38,956 nt of DNA, from positions 1 through 38,956 of the IMG/VR virus record IMGVR_UViG_3300045988_057840. One strand, given 5' to 3'. The position numbers were made by a program, and so were the translations under genes. The stretch comes from a virus. Under the pieces are notes generated by a model, which worked only from the letters and a program-made list of their open reading frames with translations, was not told the origin of the DNA and did no database searches. This document shows, piece after piece, positions 1 to 38,956 of this stretch; within the stretch, counting starts at the first letter, position 1, and each line of letters opens with the position of its first letter.

Positions 1-55
1 CAAGCCTTTAGGTGAATGCCTAAATAAAATTGAATATTGAGTTATGTAACATATA
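1..55. repeat. Terminal direct repeat, copy 1 (identical to 38902..38956)
   Basis: caagcctttaggtgaatgcctaaataaaattgaatattgagttatgtaacatata is read at both ends. It contains the last 40 nt of the ORF ending at 38941. Confidence 0.95.
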
Positions 56-67
56 GCATAGCATTTT

Positions 68-105
68 ATACGCCCTTTCATGTGTGATGATTGGGCGTAT
101 TTTTA
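68..105 (+). terminator. Intrinsic terminator downstream of the putative immunity ORF
   Basis: Stem ATACGCCC (68..75) pairs with GGGCGTAT (93..100). A T-run (tattttta) follows. Confidence 0.6.
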
Positions 106-169
106 TTGGTGTAATTAGGAGGAGTCCTATTACATATATTTTCACTCATGTTATTACGGAGGTTACAAC

Positions 170-784
170 ATGAACATCGCAGAAGTTTATCAAGCACTCG
201 AACAATTGGAGAACGGTCAAGAGCTTATCACAGCTATTAAGGGGGAGACGTCCCGTCTTAATAATGAGGCTAAGACAACACGTGAAAAGCTACAACAACA
301 AATCACGGAGTTAACAGGTGAACGTGATACGTTAACAACTCGTGTTACCGAACTAGAACAGTCGGCAGGGGCCAATACTGGATCTAATTCTCCTGAATAC
401 AAAACGCTTGAAAAGCAATTAAAGGCTATGAGCGAGAAGTTCGAACTTGCAGAAACTAAGGCAAAAGAGGCTGAGGCAAAACGCATTCAATCAGAAATTA
501 TGGCACAAACACTTGACGCCTTTACTAAGGCAAATGCGGTAGATCCGCAAGAGTTTGCAAGATTGGTTGCCAATGACATTAAAGTACAAGCCGATGGCAC
601 TTATGGTTACGAAAAAGAAGACGGCACAATTGGATCTATTCAAGATCGTACAACTGAATGGTTGCAAGGTAAAACATGGGCCGTTAAAGCTACTGGCAAT
701 GCAGGTAGTGGACAAGGTGGCAATAGTGGTAATGGCGATACTATAATGAATGAATTCGCTGCTGCAGCCGGTGTAAAACTTTAA
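170..784 (+). CDS. Head scaffolding protein (coiled-coil, Gly-rich C-terminus)
   Basis: GGAGG SD upstream. The 204-aa protein is rich in E/K/Q/L heptads. It sits directly upstream of the capsid gene and after the portal and MuF genes across the circular junction. Confidence 0.7.
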   Translation: MNIAEVYQALEQLENGQELITAIKGETSRLNNEAKTTREKLQQQITELTGERDTLTTRVTELEQSAGANTGSNSPEYKTLEKQLKAMSEKFELAETKAKEAEAKRIQSEIMAQTLDAFTKANAVDPQEFARLVANDIKVQADGTYGYEKEDGTIGSIQDRTTEWLQGKTWAVKATGNAGSGQGGNSGNGDTIMNEFAAAAGVKL

Positions 785-4506: not shown

Positions 4507-7500
4507 ATGGCAGATTCACAAATCAATGTTCGCATAGTTGGTTCATCTAGTGGTGCGGAACAAGCACTTGATAGGGTGGCTAAGAAAGCGGAAAATGCAC
4601 TAGGAAAAGACGTTACTGCTTCAATGGAGGCTGTTAAAAGCAAAGCGCAGAAGATCTTCGGTATAGAAATTCCTAGTATCATGAACGCTGCCAAAAGTGG
4701 CGCTGCATTTGGTGCTGCGGCAATAGGTATTGAAGCTGCAGGACGAGCCATGAAAGATATGGCAGTTAGTGCTGTTCAAACTACCGACCAACTTACACAG
4801 ATTAGGGCACGTATCAATCTAATTAATGACGGCAGTCAGTCTACTGCTGAAATTATGGACAAGATTTATAGCGCAGCTAACCGTTCTCGTGGTAGCTATT
4901 TAGATATGGCCGACAGTGTGGCTAAGTTGAACATGCTTGCAAAAGACGCTTTTTCATCTAATGACGAAGCAATCTATTTTGTTGAACAGTTGAATAAACA
5001 GTTCAAGATCTCCGGTGCTAGCGTTGAAGAAACAACATCAGCTATGTACCAGTTAACGCAAGCAATGGCAGCTGGTAAGCTACAAGGGGACGAATTCCAC
5101 TCAATTATGGAAAACGCTCCGATGTTGGCACAATCTATTGCCAGTGAAATGGGCTTGACTGTAGGTCAATTGAAGGAAATGAGTTCGCAAGGGCTCATTA
5201 CTGCTGACATTATCAAGGAAGCCCTATTCAATAGTGCAGAAGAAACAAACGCTAAGTTTGCAGAAATTCCTATGACGTTCCAAGACATAGGAACGCAAGT
5301 TCAGAACGAATTAATAGCTGCATTTCAACCAGCTATGGAAGAAATAAGCAACATGACAAGTTCGGGTGTATTAAACGATGCACTTGCTGGGTTGTCTATT
5401 GCCTTTCGTTTGGTTGGCACTGCTGCACAAGCAGCCATTATTACTGTAAGGGGTGCATTTAGTGCGTTATCAGTTGTAATTGGTACAGCTAAGAATATTG
5501 TTACGAGCTTTGCGAACCTGTTTAGAACAGCCATGCCAGGAGTTGCTACTGCTATTGTAGGTGTTACAACTGCATTTATTACTTATAAAGCGACAGTCGC
5601 ATTATGTAGCGCTCAAACTGCTGCATTGACTGTAAAAACTGTAGCATTAAAAACTGCACAAGTCGCCTCTGCGATTGCAACTAGGTCTTATGCGTTAGCA
5701 ATGACTGTTGTTAAAGTGGCAATTCAAGGCACTATCTTATCAATAGGCGCATTGACTTTGGGGACAACTGTCCTCAAATCATTATTTCTAGCATTAAGAA
5801 GTAGTACATTAGCTGCGGCTACTGCTCAGCGTGTATTAAATGTTGTAATGAAGGCGAACCCAGTCGGAATATTAATATCCGTTATAATGACTTTGGTCGG
5901 CGTGTTTGCGACTGCATCTGCTGCGTCTAATGGTTTCGGTAATACGTTAAGTTCGGTATTTTCAACTATTGTGCATACCGCTGTTTGGGGTGTGAATAAA
6001 ATTATCGAAGGGCTTAACTGGTTAATTGCAAAACTCAACAGTGTAGGTGATAAAGTCGCAAAATTCTTTGGCACATCTTTTACCGCTATTCAACAAGTTG
6101 ATACAATCAGTGCTGAAACGGCACAAGATATTGTAAATACTGGCGTTAATATGGCTTCACAAATAACACAAGGGTTATCCGGTGGCGGTGATACAGGCCT
6201 AGACGTTGGCGGTGGTGGCGTAGATGATGGCGGTTCCGCTGGTACCGGTAAAGGTGGAAAAGGTGGCGGAGGTGGTAAAGGCCACTCCGGAAAGGATCTT
6301 GCAAAAGAGGCCAAAGAGGTCCACGAAAAAATCTTGCAATCGTTCTTGGAAATGCAAGGCAATCAAGTCGAACTAATCGAATTGCAATACAAAAAGGAAC
6401 TCGATGAGCTCAATAAATCAAAGAGTGCTAACGTTAATTATCAAGAAGATTTAAAGAACCTTAACGATGTTTATGCGGATAAACGTATCAAGGCTAAGCA
6501 AGAGGAATTTACAAAACTTCGAGCTATTGAAACTGGTATTCGTGATATGCAACAAGATTTTGCATTTAAAACTTCAAGTAAAGATAGTACAGGCAGTGTA
6601 TCTCCTGCCGTGCAGTTGGCAACAGATTATGCCAACGCCATTGACGAAATCGAGGACCGTTATGCAGAAATGGTCGATAAGTTCATGAAAATGGACAAAA
6701 TGGAGCAACAACATCATATTGATCTGTTAAAACAACGAGGTGTTGAATTCGAAATGAGTGCTGACGGACAAATTTCCTACGAGAAAATGAAAAATGAGGA
6801 GTTGTTAGCGGCACAAGATGAGTACGCTAAAAAGGCATTACAACAACGTACCGAGCTAGTTAACGAGAAGTATGCTATTGAAGAGGCTATGCGTACTCAG
6901 AACTTCGAAGCGTTACAAGCTGCGTTAAGCGATGAATATATAGCTGAGCAACAGCATTATGACTTGAAGAAACAGCTACTTGAAGAATGGAAACAGGCTG
7001 TATTCGATGCTCATTGGAATGGACAACAAGTTCTGTTCGATGCTGCACAAGCAGGGTTAGACAGCTTGCAAGGTTCTATCTCAGGACTTATTCAAGGTAC
7101 AACAACACTTATGCAAACATTCCAAAATCTTGGTAAAGCTATCCTCAAAACTATTGCTGATAGTGTGGCTCAATGGATAGCCGGTCAAATTAAGCAAGCC
7201 GTTTTTGGGAAAATGATGGCAGCTCAACAGGCTGCAACTGGTACTGCTGCGGCTAATGCTCAATATCCGGCATGGTCTGCGTTAGCTCAACAAGTTAGTA
7301 TGGCAACATTTGGTGCCAGTGCTATCGCTGGTATGGCTGCATGGAGTGCTAACACGGCAGCTGGTGCAGCTCAAACAGCTACACAAAGTGCATTCTCCGG
7401 TATGTTCAACTCCGGCTCAAGTGGATTTAGTAGCAATCTATCGTTACCTAAATTGGCAAGCGGTGGTGTGGCTTATGGCTCGACATATGCTGAAATTGGC

Positions 7501-17299: not shown

Positions 17300-17341
17300 G
17301 ACATCATAAAGTCTTGCGTGGTTTGACATCATTTTGACATC
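17297..17341 (+). repeat. Three further TTTGACATC direct repeats (candidate arm-type sites, P' arm)
   Basis: TTTGACATC at 17297..17305, 17322..17330 and 17333..17341. The last two are 11 bp apart, and the last overlaps the integrase stop codon. Confidence 0.55.
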
Positions 17342-18413
17342 AGAATATTTTAGAAATACGTTCTACGATGTCATCTTCCATTTTAGGTGTCACATGTGAG
17401 TAGGTATCCATCGTTTCTTGAAATGACGCGTGCCCTAGACGTTCTTGTATGGCTTTCATATTGGCTCCATTTTCGATGAGAAGGGTGGCATGGGTATGTC
17501 TAGTACCATGCATAGTAAAAGTGGGCTTACCGATTAAACTGGCGTATTTCTTACATAACTTGCTGACTTCATCAGGACAGCGAGGAGCACCCTTTATACC
17601 AGGGAATACAAGATTATTATTAATCCAGTTCATGGTTTTAATTCTACGCTTGTCTATGACTGTTTTATGCTTCATAAGCTCCTGGAGCGTTTCCGTATCA
17701 ATGGCAATTATCCGTTTTGAGGATGTGGTCTTAGTTGTATTAGATATAACTGCAGTAGATCCGATTTTGAGGGCTGTTTGTGAAATGGATATAGTTGATT
17801 TTTTGAAATCGATATCCGACCATCTTAAGCCTAATAATTCAGACCGTCGCATACCTGTTGCAAATGCTAATTTAAAAAGTGCATGATGCTCTACGTTAGA
17901 TATATTGGATAGGAAGTTTTTAACCTCATCTACAGATAACGTTACCATATGCCGAACTTTAACCTGCTTTGGCCTATCTATGTTTTTCATATAGTTCTTA
18001 GGGATGATGTCATCTTTTACCGCCTGCTCTAATATGGATCCTAGAATTGTCATGGTGTAGGATATAGTCCTTGATGATAATCCATCCATTGATTCAAAAA
18101 CATATCGTAATGTATTAGGTTTAATTTCGGCCAACTTTACGCCGCCGATTTTATCTCTGATATAGCGATTGATAATGCCTGTATAGCTTTGATATGTGGC
18201 AGGCGTTATAGTCTTTTCCTTTTGTTGTAACCATATATTAATCCAGGTGTTTAATGAAATAGTATCATCGAAATTAGCACATGCTTGATTAGTATTTACG
18301 TATTTCTCCATAGCTTCTATGGCAGCTTTTTTGGTGGTGCCATAAAAGAATTTACGCTTACCGTTGATGGTTTTCGATACCTGGTATCGTCCATCGGCTC
18401 TCTTTTTTGCCAT
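17340..18413 (-). CDS. int: Tyrosine integrase (phage integrase family with N-terminal AP2-like arm-binding domain)
   Basis: N-terminus MAKKRADGRYQVSKTINGKRKFFYG. Catalytic motifs ATGMRRSEL, HGTRHTHATLL and LGHASFQETMDTYSHV. AGGAGG SD. Confidence 0.95.
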   Translation of the reverse strand: MAKKRADGRYQVSKTINGKRKFFYGTTKKAAIEAMEKYVNTNQACANFDDTISLNTWINIWLQQKEKTITPATYQSYTGIINRYIRDKIGGVKLAEIKPNTLRYVFESMDGLSSRTISYTMTILGSILEQAVKDDIIPKNYMKNIDRPKQVKVRHMVTLSVDEVKNFLSNISNVEHHALFKLAFATGMRRSELLGLRWSDIDFKKSTISISQTALKIGSTAVISNTTKTTSSKRIIAIDTETLQELMKHKTVIDKRRIKTMNWINNNLVFPGIKGAPRCPDEVSKLCKKYASLIGKPTFTMHGTRHTHATLLIENGANMKAIQERLGHASFQETMDTYSHVTPKMEDDIVERISKIF

Positions 18414-34120: not shown

Positions 34121-34564
34121 GTGGCCGAGTTAAAGAACAAGAAACACGAAAAGTTTTGTAACGAATATATCAAGGATATGAATGCGACACAGGCCGCTAT
34201 TAGAGCCGGCTATTCCGAAAAAACTGCAGGTGCGCAAGCATCTAAATTGCTTAAAATAGTTAACATCAAAACAAGGGTTTCCGAGCTTCGTGACGCTTAT
34301 TTAGACGAAAACATTATGACTGCTAAACAAGTCGAGTATGAGTTAACAAGAATTGCCCTGGGGCTCTCAAATGAAAAACACGTCGTTATCGAAGGTACAG
34401 GTGACGGATACTCCGAAGCCCGCATTATCGATAAGCCACCTGACGAGAAGTCAAGACTGAAAGCACTGGAGCTAATGGCTAAACGCCATAGAATACTCAG
34501 CGGTGATACAACTATCGATATTAAGCCTGTAATCATCGTAGGTGGTGACGATATTGCAGACTAA
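34121..34564 (+). CDS. terS: Terminase small subunit (Terminase_2 / P27 family)
   Basis: KHEKFCNEYIKDMNATQAAIRAGYSEKTAGAQASKLL is the family signature. GTG start 7 nt after AGGAGG. Confidence 0.9.
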   Translation: MAELKNKKHEKFCNEYIKDMNATQAAIRAGYSEKTAGAQASKLLKIVNIKTRVSELRDAYLDENIMTAKQVEYELTRIALGLSNEKHVVIEGTGDGYSEARIIDKPPDEKSRLKALELMAKRHRILSGDTTIDIKPVIIVGGDDIAD

Positions 34565-35801
34565 CAGAGTGTACTTGCCTGATATCGTAGGTAAGGGATA
34601 CGGTGCTTTTTGGCGTTTCAAAGGGCGCTATAAAGTAGTCAAGGGTAGTCGTGCCAGTAAGAAGTCCTCTACGCAGTCTCTAAAAGTCATTATGGAGATA
34701 ATGGAGAACCCTTGTATAAACTGGCTAGTCGTTCGTAAGACAGAACGGACTTTGCGTGACAGTTGTTTCGCGCAGCTTAAATGGGCTATGCGCCAGTTGA
34801 GAGTGGAGCGTTATTTTAAATGTTCCGTATCGCCCCTTGAAATAACGTACATTCCGACCGGCCAGAAAATCTTATTTCGTGGTCTCGATGATCCTTTAAA
34901 GGTAACGTCCATTACTGTTGAAGTGGGGGCGCTATGTAGGCTATGGATTGAAGAAGCTTATGAGATTATGAGTGAAGATGCATTCAACAGACTGGATGAA
35001 TCTATTCGTGGTCAGTTACCCAAAGGGATGTATCACCAGGTAGTATTAACCTTTAACCCGTGGTCTGATAGGCACTGGTTAAAGAAACGCTTCTTTGATG
35101 AACCTAGCAAAAACGTGCTAGCCATGACTACGAATTACCTGTGTAACGAGTTCTTGAGTGACTCTGACTTAGTACTGTTCGAGGAGATGAAAAAGAACCC
35201 TAAGCGGTACCAAGTAGCAGGGCTCGGCAACTGGGGCGTTATTGAGGGACTGGTTTACGAAAACTGGAAAGAACAAGAATTTAGTATTGATGAAATACGC
35301 AAGTTACCAGAGGCCAAAGCTATATTCGGCTTGGATTTTGGATATACTACGGACCCGACAGCTCTCTTCTGTGGTGTCGTTGATTCTGCAGAACGACGAC
35401 TGTATGTATTCGATGAGCTCTACGAACTCGCTCTTACTAATAGCGCAATAGCTGAACGAGTAAAACGTTTGGGATATGCAAAAGAGACTATTATTGCTGA
35501 TTGTGCCGAGCCTAAAAGCATAGCCGAGCTGAGAGAATTTGGATTGACTCGAACTCAGGCATCTAAAAAAGGTGCAGATAGTATTCTGAATGGTGTACAG
35601 CGCATCCAGGATTATGAAATTATAGTGCACCCGAGATGTGTTAACTTTCTTACAGAAATCAGCCAATACCAATGGGAGAAAGATAGATTTGGTAAGTATA
35701 CAGGCAAGCCTGAAGATGAAAATAACCATTTAATGGATGCTATGAGGTATGCATTTGAGAAATTTGCTGTGGTTAAAACCGGCAAAGTTGATATTTATTA
35801 G
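34542..35801 (+). CDS. terL: Terminase large subunit (PBSX / Terminase_3 family)
   Basis: YGAFWRFKGRYKVVKGSRASKKS is a Walker A-like region. WIEEA is Walker B. The C-terminal nuclease motif is NHLMDAMRY. Exact start uncertain (GTG at 34542). Confidence 0.9.
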   Translation: MVTILQTNRVYLPDIVGKGYGAFWRFKGRYKVVKGSRASKKSSTQSLKVIMEIMENPCINWLVVRKTERTLRDSCFAQLKWAMRQLRVERYFKCSVSPLEITYIPTGQKILFRGLDDPLKVTSITVEVGALCRLWIEEAYEIMSEDAFNRLDESIRGQLPKGMYHQVVLTFNPWSDRHWLKKRFFDEPSKNVLAMTTNYLCNEFLSDSDLVLFEEMKKNPKRYQVAGLGNWGVIEGLVYENWKEQEFSIDEIRKLPEAKAIFGLDFGYTTDPTALFCGVVDSAERRLYVFDELYELALTNSAIAERVKRLGYAKETIIADCAEPKSIAELREFGLTRTQASKKGADSILNGVQRIQDYEIIVHPRCVNFLTEISQYQWEKDRFGKYTGKPEDENNHLMDAMRYAFEKFAVVKTGKVDIY

Positions 35802-35813
35802 GAGGCTTATTAT

Positions 35814-37214
35814 ATGGCAATATTAACAAATGCTCGTAATGAAGAATATGAGCTATTGCATGACGCTTATTACGGCACAGGTATGTTTGCAGCTGGTGGT
35901 GCATTACAAAAACACCCTAGGGAAAGTGCTGCAAATTATACTTTTAGACAACAATTATCTTATTACCTAAACCATACTGCACCTATCATTAATGCGTGTG
36001 TGGATCCCATTTTTAAAGATACGATTTCTCGTAATTATAATGAAAGCGAATTATTCAAAACGTTCCTTAATGATGTAGATAGATTAGGAACTACACTTCA
36101 AGAGTTTATGCGTTATAATGCCACGCAAGCAAAAATCTATAGTGTTATGTACATTTTGGTTGACAATGTATCTGAAATAGGCGAAACAGTTGCCGACCAA
36201 GTAAATAATAGGCAACTACCTTATTTGGTTGCTATTGAGCCTAAAAGCGTATATAAATGGCTTACAAATGATATTGGCGAACTTGATTTCTTTGCATACT
36301 CAACAACTGTATTTGATGATGAGGGCAAAACAAAAGCCCAGTACCATGAATGGACTCGAACATCATGGACTATCAAGAATGACGAACAAAAAGTCATTGC
36401 TACTGGTGAGCATAATCTTGGCAAAGTTCCTATTGTTCAATGGTTTGGTCGTTCATCTCGTAAAATTGATATTCTACCTCCACCAGAATACTTGACTCAA
36501 GCTCAAACAAATCATCAAGTGTATCATCTATGTTCACTATTAACTCAAATACTTAATATGCAGACTTTTAGCACATTAACATTGCCGGATAATGGACAGG
36601 GCGTTGATGATATTACACTAGGTACAAATAACGTATTGTTGTATCCGGCAGAAAGTAGTCATGCACCAGCTTTTATTGCACCAGATAGAGGGCCGGCAGA
36701 GATTATCATGAGCGTTATTAAAATGCTTGTCGATGATATGTATCGCCTATCCGGTGTTAATTCTGTTATAGGTGTAAAAGAGGCCAAAAGCGGTGTGGCT
36801 AAGCAATGGGATTTTGAACGTACAAACCAACGATTGGCAGATTTCTCCGTACAGTGTGAAAGTGCTGAATACGATATTATTGAGTTGTTTGAGCTATGGA
36901 CAGGCACGAACGTAAATTATAAATGCGACTATCCTCGTGAATTCAAAATTAATGATATTGCAGATAGCCTTGCACAATCTCAGGCCGTGTTAGATCTTGG
37001 ACTCGGCAGCAACACTCTTAAAGTTGAAACAGGCAAAAAGGTATTGGATAGTTACATGCCTAATATTGAGCCTGAAACGTTCGATGAAATTGTTGCCGAA
37101 ATTGAAGAAAGCGTTCAAAGGCAAGAGCAAGACGAAACATATCATAATAATGATGATGAAGTAGAGGGCGGTGCAGATAATGAGGACGCAACAAGAGATA
37201 AACAAGGCGATTGA
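35814..37214 (+). CDS. Portal protein
   Basis: 466 aa between terL and the MuF gene, with an acidic C-terminus. GGAGG SD. Confidence 0.8.
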   Translation: MAILTNARNEEYELLHDAYYGTGMFAAGGALQKHPRESAANYTFRQQLSYYLNHTAPIINACVDPIFKDTISRNYNESELFKTFLNDVDRLGTTLQEFMRYNATQAKIYSVMYILVDNVSEIGETVADQVNNRQLPYLVAIEPKSVYKWLTNDIGELDFFAYSTTVFDDEGKTKAQYHEWTRTSWTIKNDEQKVIATGEHNLGKVPIVQWFGRSSRKIDILPPPEYLTQAQTNHQVYHLCSLLTQILNMQTFSTLTLPDNGQGVDDITLGTNNVLLYPAESSHAPAFIAPDRGPAEIIMSVIKMLVDDMYRLSGVNSVIGVKEAKSGVAKQWDFERTNQRLADFSVQCESAEYDIIELFELWTGTNVNYKCDYPREFKINDIADSLAQSQAVLDLGLGSNTLKVETGKKVLDSYMPNIEPETFDEIVAEIEESVQRQEQDETYHNNDDEVEGGADNEDATRDKQGD

Positions 37215-38733
37215 TAGTTTTGAGCAAGAAGTCAAAGCACAATTAGCACTAGGGCTTAAACCTAATGAGGCCGTTAGAAAGGCATATGCAAAATATCCTG
37301 TAATGGATATGATGAAAGCTACCTTGCAAGCGGAATTGGTTAATACTTTTATGGCAGGGTATGGCGATAATGTCCCATACTCCGCTAAAAGTATTTCACA
37401 GGCTATGTCTGAAAGTTGGGCGAGTGATGATCTTACACTTTCTAAACGTTTATATAGACGGTCAAGCACTATACGTAATGAAGTGGCTGACACTATCAAG
37501 CAAGCGTTAAAGACAAATAAGACTGTAAAGGGGTTAGCAAAGTCAATCTTCGACGGCTATGGTAAAGGTGGTATTATTCCAGAGGCTAGCATACCGAAGT
37601 TCCTACGTAAGCTATCTGATATAAATATAAGTGGTGAGGCTACTCCTGAGGCTAAGCGTAAGCAACGTGAATTGCTGCGTAGTGTTAAAGGCAAAATATC
37701 AAGGCTTGATACTCCTTATGTTAGGGCTGCCTATAACGAAGTAGCTGCAGCCGTTGACGATGGTAACGAAATTAGACTGCAAAAGGCAATATATAATGCC
37801 ACGCAAGAAAAAGCACGTTATCACGCTGAACGGATAGCAAGGACTGAAAATGCAAGGGCTTATGCTGACGGACAGATGAATAGATTTCTTGACGATGAGG
37901 ATATTATCGCTTTTCAATGGAAGTTATCCGCTAATCATCCTCGATACGATATTTGTGATTTCTATGCAAATGCAGATTTATATGGGCTTGGCAAAGGAAT
38001 TTATCCAAAGGATAAATTCCCTCAACTACCTGCACATCCGCATTGTATGTGTCATATTAAGCCTATGACTGAGCTCGATATTGATGTTAATAAGAGACAT
38101 AATAACCTAGAACAGTCAGGGCTAGAATATATCAAATCTTTATCTAAGCAACATCAGGAAGTTTTACTCGGTGTAAATGGTCGAAATACTGTATTGAGTG
38201 GCAAAGGAACTTGGCAAACCTTTATGAGGGGCTGGACTGATAAAACCATCAATGTACGAAACCCTAATTCAATAACAAAACGTTTGCATAATAGCGGTGT
38301 TAATGGTTTAATTAAGTTAAAAGAGAATGACAAACCATTATTTGATCTACAACTATTCTCTAATAACGAAATTGATTTTGATAAGATAATAGACAAAACC
38401 AAAGGTCGATATAAGATTAAAACAAAATCAAACCCTAACGATGTTATTATGTATAAATCAAAAAATAGTAATGGTCAGCAACAACTCAACTTCTCTTTTT
38501 ATAATGAATTTGGGATATTATATAAACAGTTACACGGTGGCCATCATGGAAATGCTAAGCATCATAATGTTGGTACTAATGACAAACCTATATATTATCA
38601 TAAGCATTTTTATAAAATAGTAGGATATAAAAACAAAGATACGCCTATTTTGGAAGAATCAGAAATAAAACCATTAACAGAAAAAGAAAGGGGGTATTTC
38701 AATGACGAAAGACGAATTTTGGGAGGCAATTAA
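37180..38733 (+). CDS. MuF / SPP1 gp7-family head morphogenesis protein fused to a C-terminal extension of about 155 aa (candidate polymorphic toxin domain)
   Basis: The MuF core includes RIARTENARAYADGQ and HPHCMCH (38035..38055). Codons after about 38263 are visibly AT-rich and encode LHGGHHGNAKHHNVGTNDKPIYYHKHF. The ATG at 37180 lies 11 nt after GAGGG. Confidence 0.75.
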   Translation: MRTQQEINKAIDSFEQEVKAQLALGLKPNEAVRKAYAKYPVMDMMKATLQAELVNTFMAGYGDNVPYSAKSISQAMSESWASDDLTLSKRLYRRSSTIRNEVADTIKQALKTNKTVKGLAKSIFDGYGKGGIIPEASIPKFLRKLSDINISGEATPEAKRKQRELLRSVKGKISRLDTPYVRAAYNEVAAAVDDGNEIRLQKAIYNATQEKARYHAERIARTENARAYADGQMNRFLDDEDIIAFQWKLSANHPRYDICDFYANADLYGLGKGIYPKDKFPQLPAHPHCMCHIKPMTELDIDVNKRHNNLEQSGLEYIKSLSKQHQEVLLGVNGRNTVLSGKGTWQTFMRGWTDKTINVRNPNSITKRLHNSGVNGLIKLKENDKPLFDLQLFSNNEIDFDKIIDKTKGRYKIKTKSNPNDVIMYKSKNSNGQQQLNFSFYNEFGILYKQLHGGHHGNAKHHNVGTNDKPIYYHKHFYKIVGYKNKDTPILEESEIKPLTEKERGYFNDERRILGGN

Positions 38734-38941
38734 TACTGGCGGAAAAGTATATACATATAATGATGAAATCGATTTTTATGCCGTATTTACTAAGGGAGCA
38801 TATGAGATTTATCCTGTTCCAGTTCCTGATTATATAAATTCAGATAATTACGAAAAATATAAAACATTCGATGAAATGTTAAGAGGTTGTACGATTTTTG
38901 ACAAGCCTTTAGGTGAATGCCTAAATAAAATTGAATATTGA
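38702..38941 (+). CDS. Small protein (79 aa), candidate immunity protein for the MuF C-terminal domain
   Basis: AAGGGGG SD 7 nt upstream. Overlaps the MuF stop by 32 nt. AT-rich. A terminator follows at 68..105 across the circular junction. Confidence 0.55.
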   Translation: MTKDEFWEAINTGGKVYTYNDEIDFYAVFTKGAYEIYPVPVPDYINSDNYEKYKTFDEMLRGCTIFDKPLGECLNKIEY

Positions 38942-38956
38942 GTTATGTAACATATA
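38902..38956. repeat. Terminal direct repeat, copy 2 (identical to 1..55)
   Basis: Exact 55/55 match by eye to the window start. Confidence 0.95.

Follow-up and report, generated by a model that had tools for sequence, protein, structure and literature searches.

Organization of the MuF locus

The DNA analysed here, referred to as the window, is the IMG/VR virus record IMGVR_UViG_3300045988_057840, 38,956 nucleotides (nt) in length. A 55-bp terminal direct repeat (1..55 = 38902..38956) shows the assembly to be circular, which gives a phage genome of 38,901 bp. In a first-pass annotation, a gene for a MuF-type head protein and a short open reading frame (ORF) overlapping its 3' end were proposed to be a candidate polymorphic toxin and its immunity partner, and this locus is the subject of the present analysis. 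The features of the locus are listed below. Residues are numbered on the 517-amino-acid (aa) MuF protein, and structures were predicted with AlphaFold2 (AF2), the confidence being given as the predicted local distance difference test (pLDDT). Compared loci are denoted by L numbers and proteins by P numbers.

37180..38733, + strand: gene for a MuF-type head protein, 517 aa from the ATG at 37180; the ORF opens at GTG 37171
37180..38268, + strand: conserved MuF core, residues 1-363, ending exactly at the stop of the short 363-aa allele
38269..38382, + strand: linker, about residues 364-401, Lys/Asn-rich and predicted to be disordered (AF2 pLDDT 26-31)
38383..38730, + strand: core of the C-terminal domain A, candidate toxin, about residues 402-517, homologous to the C-termini of divergent MuF proteins
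38533..38607, + strand: His/Lys motif H-x3-H-x3-K-x-H-x2-G-x8-H-x-H (H452, H456, K460, H462, H474, H476)
38687..38694, + strand: AAAGGGGG, the Shine-Dalgarno sequence for the small ORF, within the coding part of the MuF gene and 8 nt upstream of the small ORF's ATG
38702..38941, + strand: ImmA, a 79-aa acidic protein (pI 4.3), candidate cognate immunity protein, overlapping the MuF gene by 32 nt
68..105, + strand: intrinsic-terminator hairpin and T-tract between the cassette and the scaffold gene, common to alleles A, B and C

ATG 37180 is a likelier start of the MuF gene than GTG 37171, because GAGGG lies 11 nt upstream of it and the homologues are 517 aa long and begin with MRTQ. The protein was assigned to the MuF group because head-morphogenesis and minor-head families of PHROGs match it and because its gene follows the portal gene. 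PHROG 1657 (head morphogenesis) matched the core with E = 8e-33, and the minor-head families 115 and 581, which are also the best matches of the PF04233-positive protein P0152 and the PF06152-positive protein P0154, matched as well. An N-terminal domain of the MuF superfamily (PF04233, PF06152 or the MuF3/MuF4 profiles) was thus recognized via the PHROG families. The match of the core to Pfam PF04233 (Phage_Mu_F) was sub-threshold, with 16.4 bits against a cut-off of 29.6 (E = 0.016). The first-pass description of the N-terminal ~360 aa as an ordinary SPP1-gp7/Mu-F domain therefore stands as far as the PHROG matches, the post-portal position and the 363-aa core are concerned, but not for the Pfam family. 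The sequence HPHCMCH is located in the core at 38035..38055. A position directly 3' of the portal gene is the contextual criterion for MuF toxins (Jamet et al. 2017, PMC5576092), and the MuF gene of the window lies immediately downstream of the portal gene in the packaging/head module.

From exactly the end of the short allele (363 aa, ...ARKPK), the MuF protein of the window runs on for 154 residues. The GC content, which is 0.40 for the MuF core, drops to 0.277 for the extension and to 0.304 for the small ORF. That of the 673-nt cassette, 0.287, is below every sliding window of the same size in the genome (genome median, 0.412). Windowed GC thus bore out the earlier remark that the extension is more AT-rich than the rest of the gene, and the cassette is the lowest-GC segment of the phage genome. 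The dense His cluster reported in the Lys/Asn-rich extension is present, with the stretch LHGGHHGNAKHH...HKHF beginning at 38530, and the overlap of the 79-aa ORF with the 3' end of the MuF gene and its own Shine-Dalgarno sequence were likewise as described.

Since the genome assembly is circular, the hairpin at 68..105 is directly 3' of the small ORF. It folds with a free energy of -19 kcal/mol (z = -4.5), a stability that none of 200 shuffled sequences reached. A simple terminator scanner missed it owing to its internal loop. The terminator that had been placed after the small ORF is real, both in its hairpin and in its T-tract, but it is not specific to the cassette, because alleles A, B and C share the hairpin and the no-cassette allele (D) has an equivalent one before the scaffold gene. 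The terminator was therefore ruled out as a part of the cassette and is a feature of the phage family irrespective of the allele. A second hairpin with a T-tract was observed directly 3' of the small ORF in cassettes B and C and in some A cassettes, upstream of the shared terminator (L010:5838-5870; L011:5751-5785; L002:6238-6272); the window allele is without a clean version of it.

Exchange of C-terminal domains together with the small ORF

A search with the full protein returned 810 relatives. The best 120 clusters of these were ~90-93% identical over the first 70% of the query, with a few at 81-84% over 78%. By C-terminal type, these 120 clusters divide into 114 of type B (565 aa), two of type A (P0029 and P0030, which carry the window's own C-terminus), one of type C and three with none (363 aa). 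The core is ~90-95% identical across 35 IMG/VR loci as well as across more than 100 protein clusters, and on it five states were found (A, B, C, E and none), as follows.

Allele A (window): MuF protein of 517 aa; small ORF of 79 aa
Allele B: MuF protein of 565 aa; small ORF of 51 aa
Allele C: MuF protein of 517 aa; small ORF of 76 aa (called as 86)
Allele D: MuF protein of 363 aa, no extension; no small ORF, the scaffold gene following after ~115 nt
Allele E (L054): MuF protein of 510 aa; small ORF of 66 aa

Homology between the alleles stops exactly at the terminus of allele D, ...R-x-P (residue 363). The 35 IMG/VR loci served as an independent sample, in which 33 were informative. Domain A was found with the 79-aa ORF in three, B with the 51-aa ORF in 14, C with the 76-aa ORF in three and E with the 66-aa ORF in one, while the remaining 12 had neither domain nor ORF. 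All pairs were cognate (21/21) and mismatched pairs numbered zero. Within type B, domain identities of 97, 90, 85 and 82% were paralleled by small-ORF identities of 98, 86, 71 and 52%. The alignment of MuF homologues thus agreed with the expectation that the N-terminus is conserved (~90-95%) and that the C-terminus and the downstream ORF swap together; the relatives do not all carry the same C-terminus, but one of four unrelated domains, or none. All four cassettes are AT-rich relative to the core, and their charges are complementary in 4/4, the domains having a pI of 9.3-9.8 and the small proteins a pI of 4.2-5.7. Because alleles without a cassette are common, the cassette is dispensable.

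Several observations were made on the other cassettes. Cassette B, the commonest allele (L010:5057-5695), encodes a 202-aa domain containing VVIHNHPKNITFSVTD, which by eye resembles the H-x-H-x6/7-S-x2-D metalloprotease motif of the JAB/MPN (JAMM) type. Despite this JAMM-like motif, Pfam, NCBIfam and PDB sequence searches gave nothing for the B domain, and Pfam and NCBIfam scans gave nothing for cassette C. Cassette E (L054:3557-4221) has an unrelated 144-aa C-terminus overlapped by 4 nt by its very acidic 66-aa ORF (pI 4.2), and no homologue of it was present in the chromosomal arrays retrieved (see below).

Mobility, selection and distant relatives of the cassette

Locus L013 is 72% identical to the window in the portal gene and 67% in the MuF core, but its domain A and ImmA are 90% and 87% identical, respectively. 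The synonymous divergence (dS) between the two was 1.52 in the core, 0.37 in domain A and 0.55 in ImmA. Because the domain and ImmA of L013 are far closer to those of the window than the core is, and because the cassette is the lowest-GC segment, we regard the cassette as mobile. The ratio of nonsynonymous to synonymous divergence (dN/dS) was 0.13-0.17 for the extension and 0.07-0.24 for the small ORF, except for the near-identical pair of the window and L014 (0.50). Judged from these ratios, both ORFs are evidently under purifying selection.

When 1.84 billion representative proteins were searched exhaustively by HMMER, with residues 363-517 as the query, only seven clusters matched, and in 7/7 the homologous segment (core ~402-509) is at the extreme C-terminus. 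Four of the clusters clearly represent MuF proteins, P0150, P0152 and P0153 by PF04233 and P0154 by PF06152. Three distant loci could be located, and in 3/3 an ORF of 71-82 aa lies directly 3' of the MuF gene, before the scaffold gene. These small ORFs are homologous to ImmA over the full length (hhalign probability 96.9%, E = 1.7e-10) and belong to PHROG 3711 (E from 1e-17 to 5e-10), a family of unknown function that the ImmA of the window itself matches at E = 0.003. The domain/small-ORF pair recurs at 21-43% identity on unrelated MuF backbones, including those of Streptococcus phages. The ImmA family comprises 27 clusters, many of them outside phages. When one distant domain was used for tblastn, twelve GenBank Streptococcus phages were found to carry a homologue.

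S. pneumoniae phages: IPP15, IPP38, IPP40, IPP61, Spn1, phiARI0468b-3
S. mitis phages: MissB1, MissE1, Javan316
S. suis phages: phi891591, phi7917, Javan578

In 12/12, the tblastn match covers the end of the head-morphogenesis gene at the MuF position and the start of a second annotated gene. In IPP40 and phi891591, this second gene proved to be an ORF of 70-75 aa that overlaps the first and belongs to the related PHROGs 15041, 27650 and 3711. In the twelve phages it is annotated as 'RimM protein' (IPP40, IPP15, IPP38, IPP61 and MissE1), 'isoleucyl-tRNA synthetase' (Spn1) or hypothetical. The first two labels look like annotation errors. In the case of IPP40 (L025, KY065480.1, 2812-3039), the gene labelled 'RimM' is a 75-aa ORF of PHROG 15041, an ImmA-related family. 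The pair had been suggested to be undescribed. It is indeed uncharacterised, but it is not unseen, since it occurs in these GenBank phages with the small ORF mislabelled; the family is present in the databases, unannotated or misannotated. Megablast and tblastn searches of GenBank phages with the window region itself gave nothing, the Streptococcus phages being found only with the more central family member, and tblastn of GenBank phages with the small ORF of L020 gave nothing. Full-length 517-aa relatives were missed by a word-indexed protein search, which is a limit of that search tool.

These data bear on whether the extension and the small ORF are merely AT-rich read-through or chance ORFs without function. 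A low GC content weakly favours long open frames, and the extension is split by a frameshift in the relative L001. On the other hand, dN/dS stays within 0.07-0.24 except in one near-identical pair, and the core of the AF2 model is confidently folded. Moreover, phages of Veillonella, of Streptococcus and from metagenomes share the domain and the small ORF down to 21-30% identity, the His residues being invariant. We consider this explanation, whose probability is negligible, to be refuted already by the conservation data. As to the split itself, a frameshift in the linker of L001 (5900-6420) divides the MuF gene into ORFs of 388 and 135 aa. Either this is an artefact of sequencing, or the candidate toxin domain is naturally separated from the head protein in L001.

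Predicted structure and conserved residues of domain A and ImmA

The linker is not conserved in the distant homologues, and the AF2 model shows it as a disordered tether of ~40-45 residues. Domain A is basic (pI 9.65), and its model has five beta-strands and a C-terminal helix, a loop bearing the His cluster, with a pLDDT of 59 overall and ~80 in the core. The invariant His residues are H456, H462, H474 and H476 (alignments A2 and A6, 10 sequences down to 21% identity), while H452 and K460 recur in 90% or more of the 10 aligned sequences. Also conserved in these alignments are P-N-x-V-I, lying upstream, and Y-D-x-x-G. From the models, the extension is predicted to consist of a disordered tether and a ~110-aa basic, beta-rich domain with a His/Lys motif resembling an active site.

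As the first-pass annotation had stated, the domain cannot be assigned to a named toxin family, since no Pfam, NCBIfam, PDB-sequence or PDB-fold match was obtained. PDB sequence searches with single sequences and two profiles gave no match, and Foldseek of both AF2 models against the PDB gave nothing significant (best E, 0.2 and 1.5), so that the ImmA model (pLDDT 64) has no fold match there. Against BFVD, Foldseek matched only another minor capsid protein and a 148-aa protein labelled 'glycosyltransferase'. The IPP40 homologue showed a weak match to the C-terminal end of phrog_18811 'toxin' (E = 3e-4). The small ORF had no match in Pfam or NCBIfam, and PHROGs yielded only families of unknown function.

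A GHH-type, HNH/EndoVII-fold nuclease had been offered as a speculation for the domain, and it did not hold. The window protein does have the string GGHHG in common with Tox-GHH/HNH-EndoVII proteins, but the GHH is unconserved, reading YGNHG, YGSHS, SGAHG or TSDHG in the homologues, and the predicted fold, a beta-sheet with a terminal helix, is unlike their beta-beta-alpha metal finger. No HNH or Tox-GHH family matched by sequence or by predicted fold: for nine members, Pfam gave no match at E <= 10, and Foldseek of the AF2 model found no HNH fold.

Nuclease toxins with acidic immunity proteins are exemplified by barnase/barstar and by the colicin E DNases with their Im proteins. Domain A and ImmA are like these pairs in that conserved His and Lys residues occur in a small, basic, enzyme-like domain, with a small acidic partner encoded immediately downstream. 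They differ in that no sequence or fold similarity to these pairs was detected, and a nuclease activity of domain A is a prior expectation only. According to Jamet et al. 2017 (PMC5576092), nucleases make up more than half of the recognised MuF toxins. From this share, from the complementary charges of domain and partner and from the His/Lys motif, we infer that domain A may be a His/Lys-dependent, perhaps metal-dependent, hydrolase acting on nucleic acid.

Arrays of toxin-less small ORFs in Veillonella chromosomes

Homologues of ImmA, ImmC and ImmB (the small proteins of cassettes A, C and B) were found in tandem on Veillonella chromosomal contigs of up to 135 kb, at one locus between a major facilitator superfamily (MFS) transporter gene and tRNA-Ser(CGA)/tadA. 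Their composition varies with the strain.

L006-L009: ImmA, ImmC, ImmB and ImmB' (L006:2822-3760)
L016: ImmA and two ImmB (6001-6671)
L024: ImmA and ImmB (5001-5469)
L014 and L015: ImmA only (L014:1495-1846)
L021-L023: ImmA and a truncated ImmC (L021:3900-4248)

No MuF gene or toxin domain was present within 3-6 kb of the arrays. L014 and L015 are 94-96% identical in DNA to the window from 38663 to 38956 plus 1..114, which covers the Shine-Dalgarno sequence, the gene and the terminator. These orphan copies keep the Shine-Dalgarno sequence with 39 nt upstream of it and, of domain A, only the last 21 codons; L015 also bears a 17-codon fragment of domain C. The last array terminator matches the terminator 3' of ImmB in the phage locus L010. 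Between orphan and phage copies, dN/dS was 0.08-0.16 where the orphans have diverged and 0.07-0.50 for L014, a copy captured recently. The arrays are thus tandem, strain-variable and toxin-less, and they derive from a toxin-bearing element by horizontal transfer. The idea that an array is a decayed prophage of the window's phage family, or its attachment site, was rejected, because the array loci have no other DNA similarity to the window, the MuF gene lies in the middle of a prophage, and three immunity types stand in tandem without toxins. In several strains, a small integrative island adjoins the array (L006:4062-9061; L021:4498-9142; L023:735-4438), presumably inserted at the tRNA-Ser side. 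The island, which looks like a phage satellite or a phage-inducible chromosomal island (PICI), contains a tyrosine integrase, a D5_N/DUF5906 primase and helix-turn-helix (HTH) genes of a repressor-like kind.

Orphan immunity clusters are represented by orphan cdiA-CT/cdiI modules and by the acquired interbacterial defence (AID) clusters of Bacteroidales. The Veillonella arrays resemble both in having tandem, strain-variable immunity homologues without full toxins, in keeping some 3' remnants of toxins, in lying at a hotspot by mobile elements and in having been acquired horizontally from a toxin-bearing element. They differ in that the cognate candidate toxins are on phage head proteins, not on substrates of type V, VI or VII secretion systems. 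Such a pattern is classical for orphan immunity genes of polymorphic-toxin systems. In the searchable literature, no report of immunity-only arrays for MuF toxins was found. The Veillonella arrays match alternative MuF cassettes of the temperate phages of the same genus and, if protective, would be evidence of the natural delivery of MuF toxins, a proposal that we regard as evenly balanced.

In an alternative reading, the extension is an accessory to head structure or assembly, such as a decoration module or a portal- or DNA-binding module, with the small ORF as an assembly chaperone or an unrelated head gene. It would be in keeping with the location in the head-morphogenesis module, with the restriction of the domain to MuF proteins and with the PHROG annotation of the fusion simply as 'minor head protein'. 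However, four unrelated domains and an empty state occur on a ~90-95% identical backbone beside a scaffold gene that is mostly 90-99% identical, and the cassette has a foreign base composition and was transferred between lineages. In addition, arrays of three client-less 'chaperones' under purifying selection would be functionless. Because of the no-cassette allele, the orphan arrays and the selection data, this role, like that of a chance ORF, is poorly compatible with the results, and we consider it quite improbable.

A probable MuF polymorphic toxin with its immunity protein

The phage of the window encodes a tyrosine integrase (17340..18413; PF00589, 2e-30) and a Cro/CI-type HTH protein. 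It is considered to be temperate because of the integrase gene and because the MuF family member P0059 is annotated in a V. rogosae genome, in a contig of 306 kb. MuF polymorphic toxins of temperate phages have been described (Zhang et al. 2012, PMC3482391; Jamet et al. 2017, PMC5576092), and for the known systems Apk2 with IapK and Aph1 (S. pneumoniae prophage), the toxin/immunity logic was shown experimentally in the case of Apk2/IapK (PMC12226406). As with these toxins, the MuF gene of the locus comes straight after that for the portal protein, and it encodes an N-terminus that is conserved and an extension that varies and exceeds the short MuF form. A co-varying small ORF of <150 aa lies immediately downstream, and the phage is a temperate one of a human-associated Firmicute (in the broad sense).

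Because of the conserved N-terminus and variable C-terminus, the perfect pairing of domain and small ORF, the mobility, deep co-inheritance and dispensability of the cassette, the orphan arrays, the charge complementarity, the temperate phage and the match to the published architecture, we interpret the locus as a MuF polymorphic-toxin locus of a temperate Veillonella siphophage, in which a 363-residue head protein bears an exchanged cassette with a 79-aa immunity protein. The probability of this interpretation is, in our estimation, about 75%. The assignment of domain A and the small ORF as a putative toxin and its immunity protein is strongly supported by the comparisons, and the originally proposed order of a MuF N-terminus, a variable C-terminal candidate toxin and a small immunity gene is supported by the paired alleles, the deep co-inheritance and the orphan arrays. 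Domain A and ImmA would then be an uncharacterised toxin/immunity family within the known class of MuF polymorphic toxins.

The locus also differs from the known MuF toxins. None of the listed toxin families includes its domain, which is no (p)ppApp synthetase either, and its core is below the PF04233 threshold. Five allelic states in one phage lineage and immunity-only arrays in the host chromosome set it further apart. The host is a Negativicute (Veillonella), without mention in Jamet et al. 2017 (PMC5576092) and its supplements; the text of the supplementary tables names neither the relevant Streptococcus phages nor Veillonella. In the scheme of that study, the window protein falls into the class 'C-terminal extension with unknown domain'.

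In the proposed mechanism, the small protein would be made during lytic growth from the same late transcript, using the Shine-Dalgarno sequence inside the toxin coding region, and would bind the domain and protect the producing cell. The MuF core would carry the fusion into the procapsid via the portal, as SPP1 gp7, and the fusion would be ejected with the DNA at infection, so that the domain could act in the cytoplasm of cells lacking the immunity protein. Nucleic acid is the best guess for the target, on the grounds given above for a hydrolase. Lysogens would be protected if the small gene is expressed, and strains with captured toxin-less genes in the array by tRNA-Ser(CGA) would be protected as well.

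Several points weigh against this interpretation. Domain A is without similarity to known toxins in Pfam, NCBIfam, PDB sequences and PDB folds. Outside MuF proteins it was encountered only in one 148-aa BFVD protein and in two proteins that are short or fragmentary, and never on other trafficking domains of polymorphic toxins; it is thus neither a recognised toxin domain nor shared with other polymorphic-toxin families, and 75% of the recognised MuF toxin domains are so shared (Jamet et al., PMC5576092). The AF2 models are of only moderate quality for both proteins. Packaging and ejection are deduced from SPP1 gp7. Promoter scans gave no signal for the small ORF above background, the counts being no higher than in shuffled sequence, and for this reason its expression in lysogens is a supposition only.

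Some of these points fit its main rival, in which the C-terminal domains are not toxins but injected effectors that promote infection, for instance by anti-defence, host takeover or protection of DNA ends, like 'polyvalent' virion proteins. The small proteins would then be inhibitors or chaperones in the producer cell, and the arrays an anti-phage defence that disarms the incoming effector. The lack of similarity to any known toxin, the restriction of the domain to MuF proteins and the location of the arrays in a tRNA-linked hotspot beside mobile islands, as is often the case with defence genes, would agree with such a role. Paired cassettes and orphan neutralisers fit it equally well, the neutralisation logic being the same as for a toxin. 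However, no-cassette alleles are frequent in otherwise ~90-95% identical phages, so that the domain is not needed for infection, and the need of the producer for an inhibitor, with basic/acidic pairing in every cassette, suggests harm to a cell of the host species. Moreover, the MuF C-terminal domains tested elsewhere are growth-inhibiting toxins (PMC12226406). We consider an effector with its inhibitor unlikely, though less so than a structural role.

MuF toxins are widespread in phages of human-associated Firmicutes, and only the (p)ppApp-synthetase type has been studied biochemically. The present locus adds a very clear case of natural polymorphism, with five allelic states on one near-identical backbone. 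If the polymorphic-toxin interpretation is correct, it also adds an uncharacterised family pair of toxin domain and immunity protein, occurring in phages of Veillonella and of Streptococcus (pneumoniae, mitis, suis), and host-side orphan immunity arrays, which would imply selection by the incoming toxin. As a His-dependent toxin the domain would have a new fold, its immunity family (PHROGs 3711, 15041, 27650) would be new as well, and the five-allele locus would provide a natural system for probing the biological role of MuF toxins. If the array genes protect, MuF toxins would be delivered into non-lysogenic cells, at a cost that selects for captured immunity.

Late-gene context and mosaic packaging module

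The late genes are arranged in the order of TerS, TerL, portal, MuF, the 79-aa ORF, the hairpin terminator, scaffold and major capsid. The two context genes flanking the locus are as follows.

35814..37214, + strand: portal gene, by its position between the TerL gene (PF04466) and the MuF gene
170..784, + strand: scaffold gene, the first gene 3' of the cassette, with PF06810 Phage_scaffold at the same position in relatives

The start of the MuF gene falls within the 3' end of the portal gene. The portal gene is 91-94% identical to a portal-sized gene of the related loci, and PF05133 SPP1_portal is found at the portal position in distant loci with the same gene order. The scaffold gene is 90-99% identical in most related loci, 81-84% in two and 80% in L013, regardless of the cassette type.

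A comparison of window 34121-35801 with L001-L005 and L013 shows that the packaging module, upstream of the portal gene, is a mosaic. In the window and in L010, a Terminase_3 large subunit of 415-419 aa accompanies a small subunit of the Terminase_2 family. L001-L005 and L013 have a 470-aa Terminase_6C/T7-like large subunit, with TAGT (PF20691) and mostly also ParB_N genes ahead of it. Despite the other terminase, the portal and MuF genes of L001-L005 are 92-95% identical to those of the window, while L013 is more diverged in both. From the differing terminases and the near-identical portal and MuF genes, a recombination junction is placed between the terminase and portal genes.

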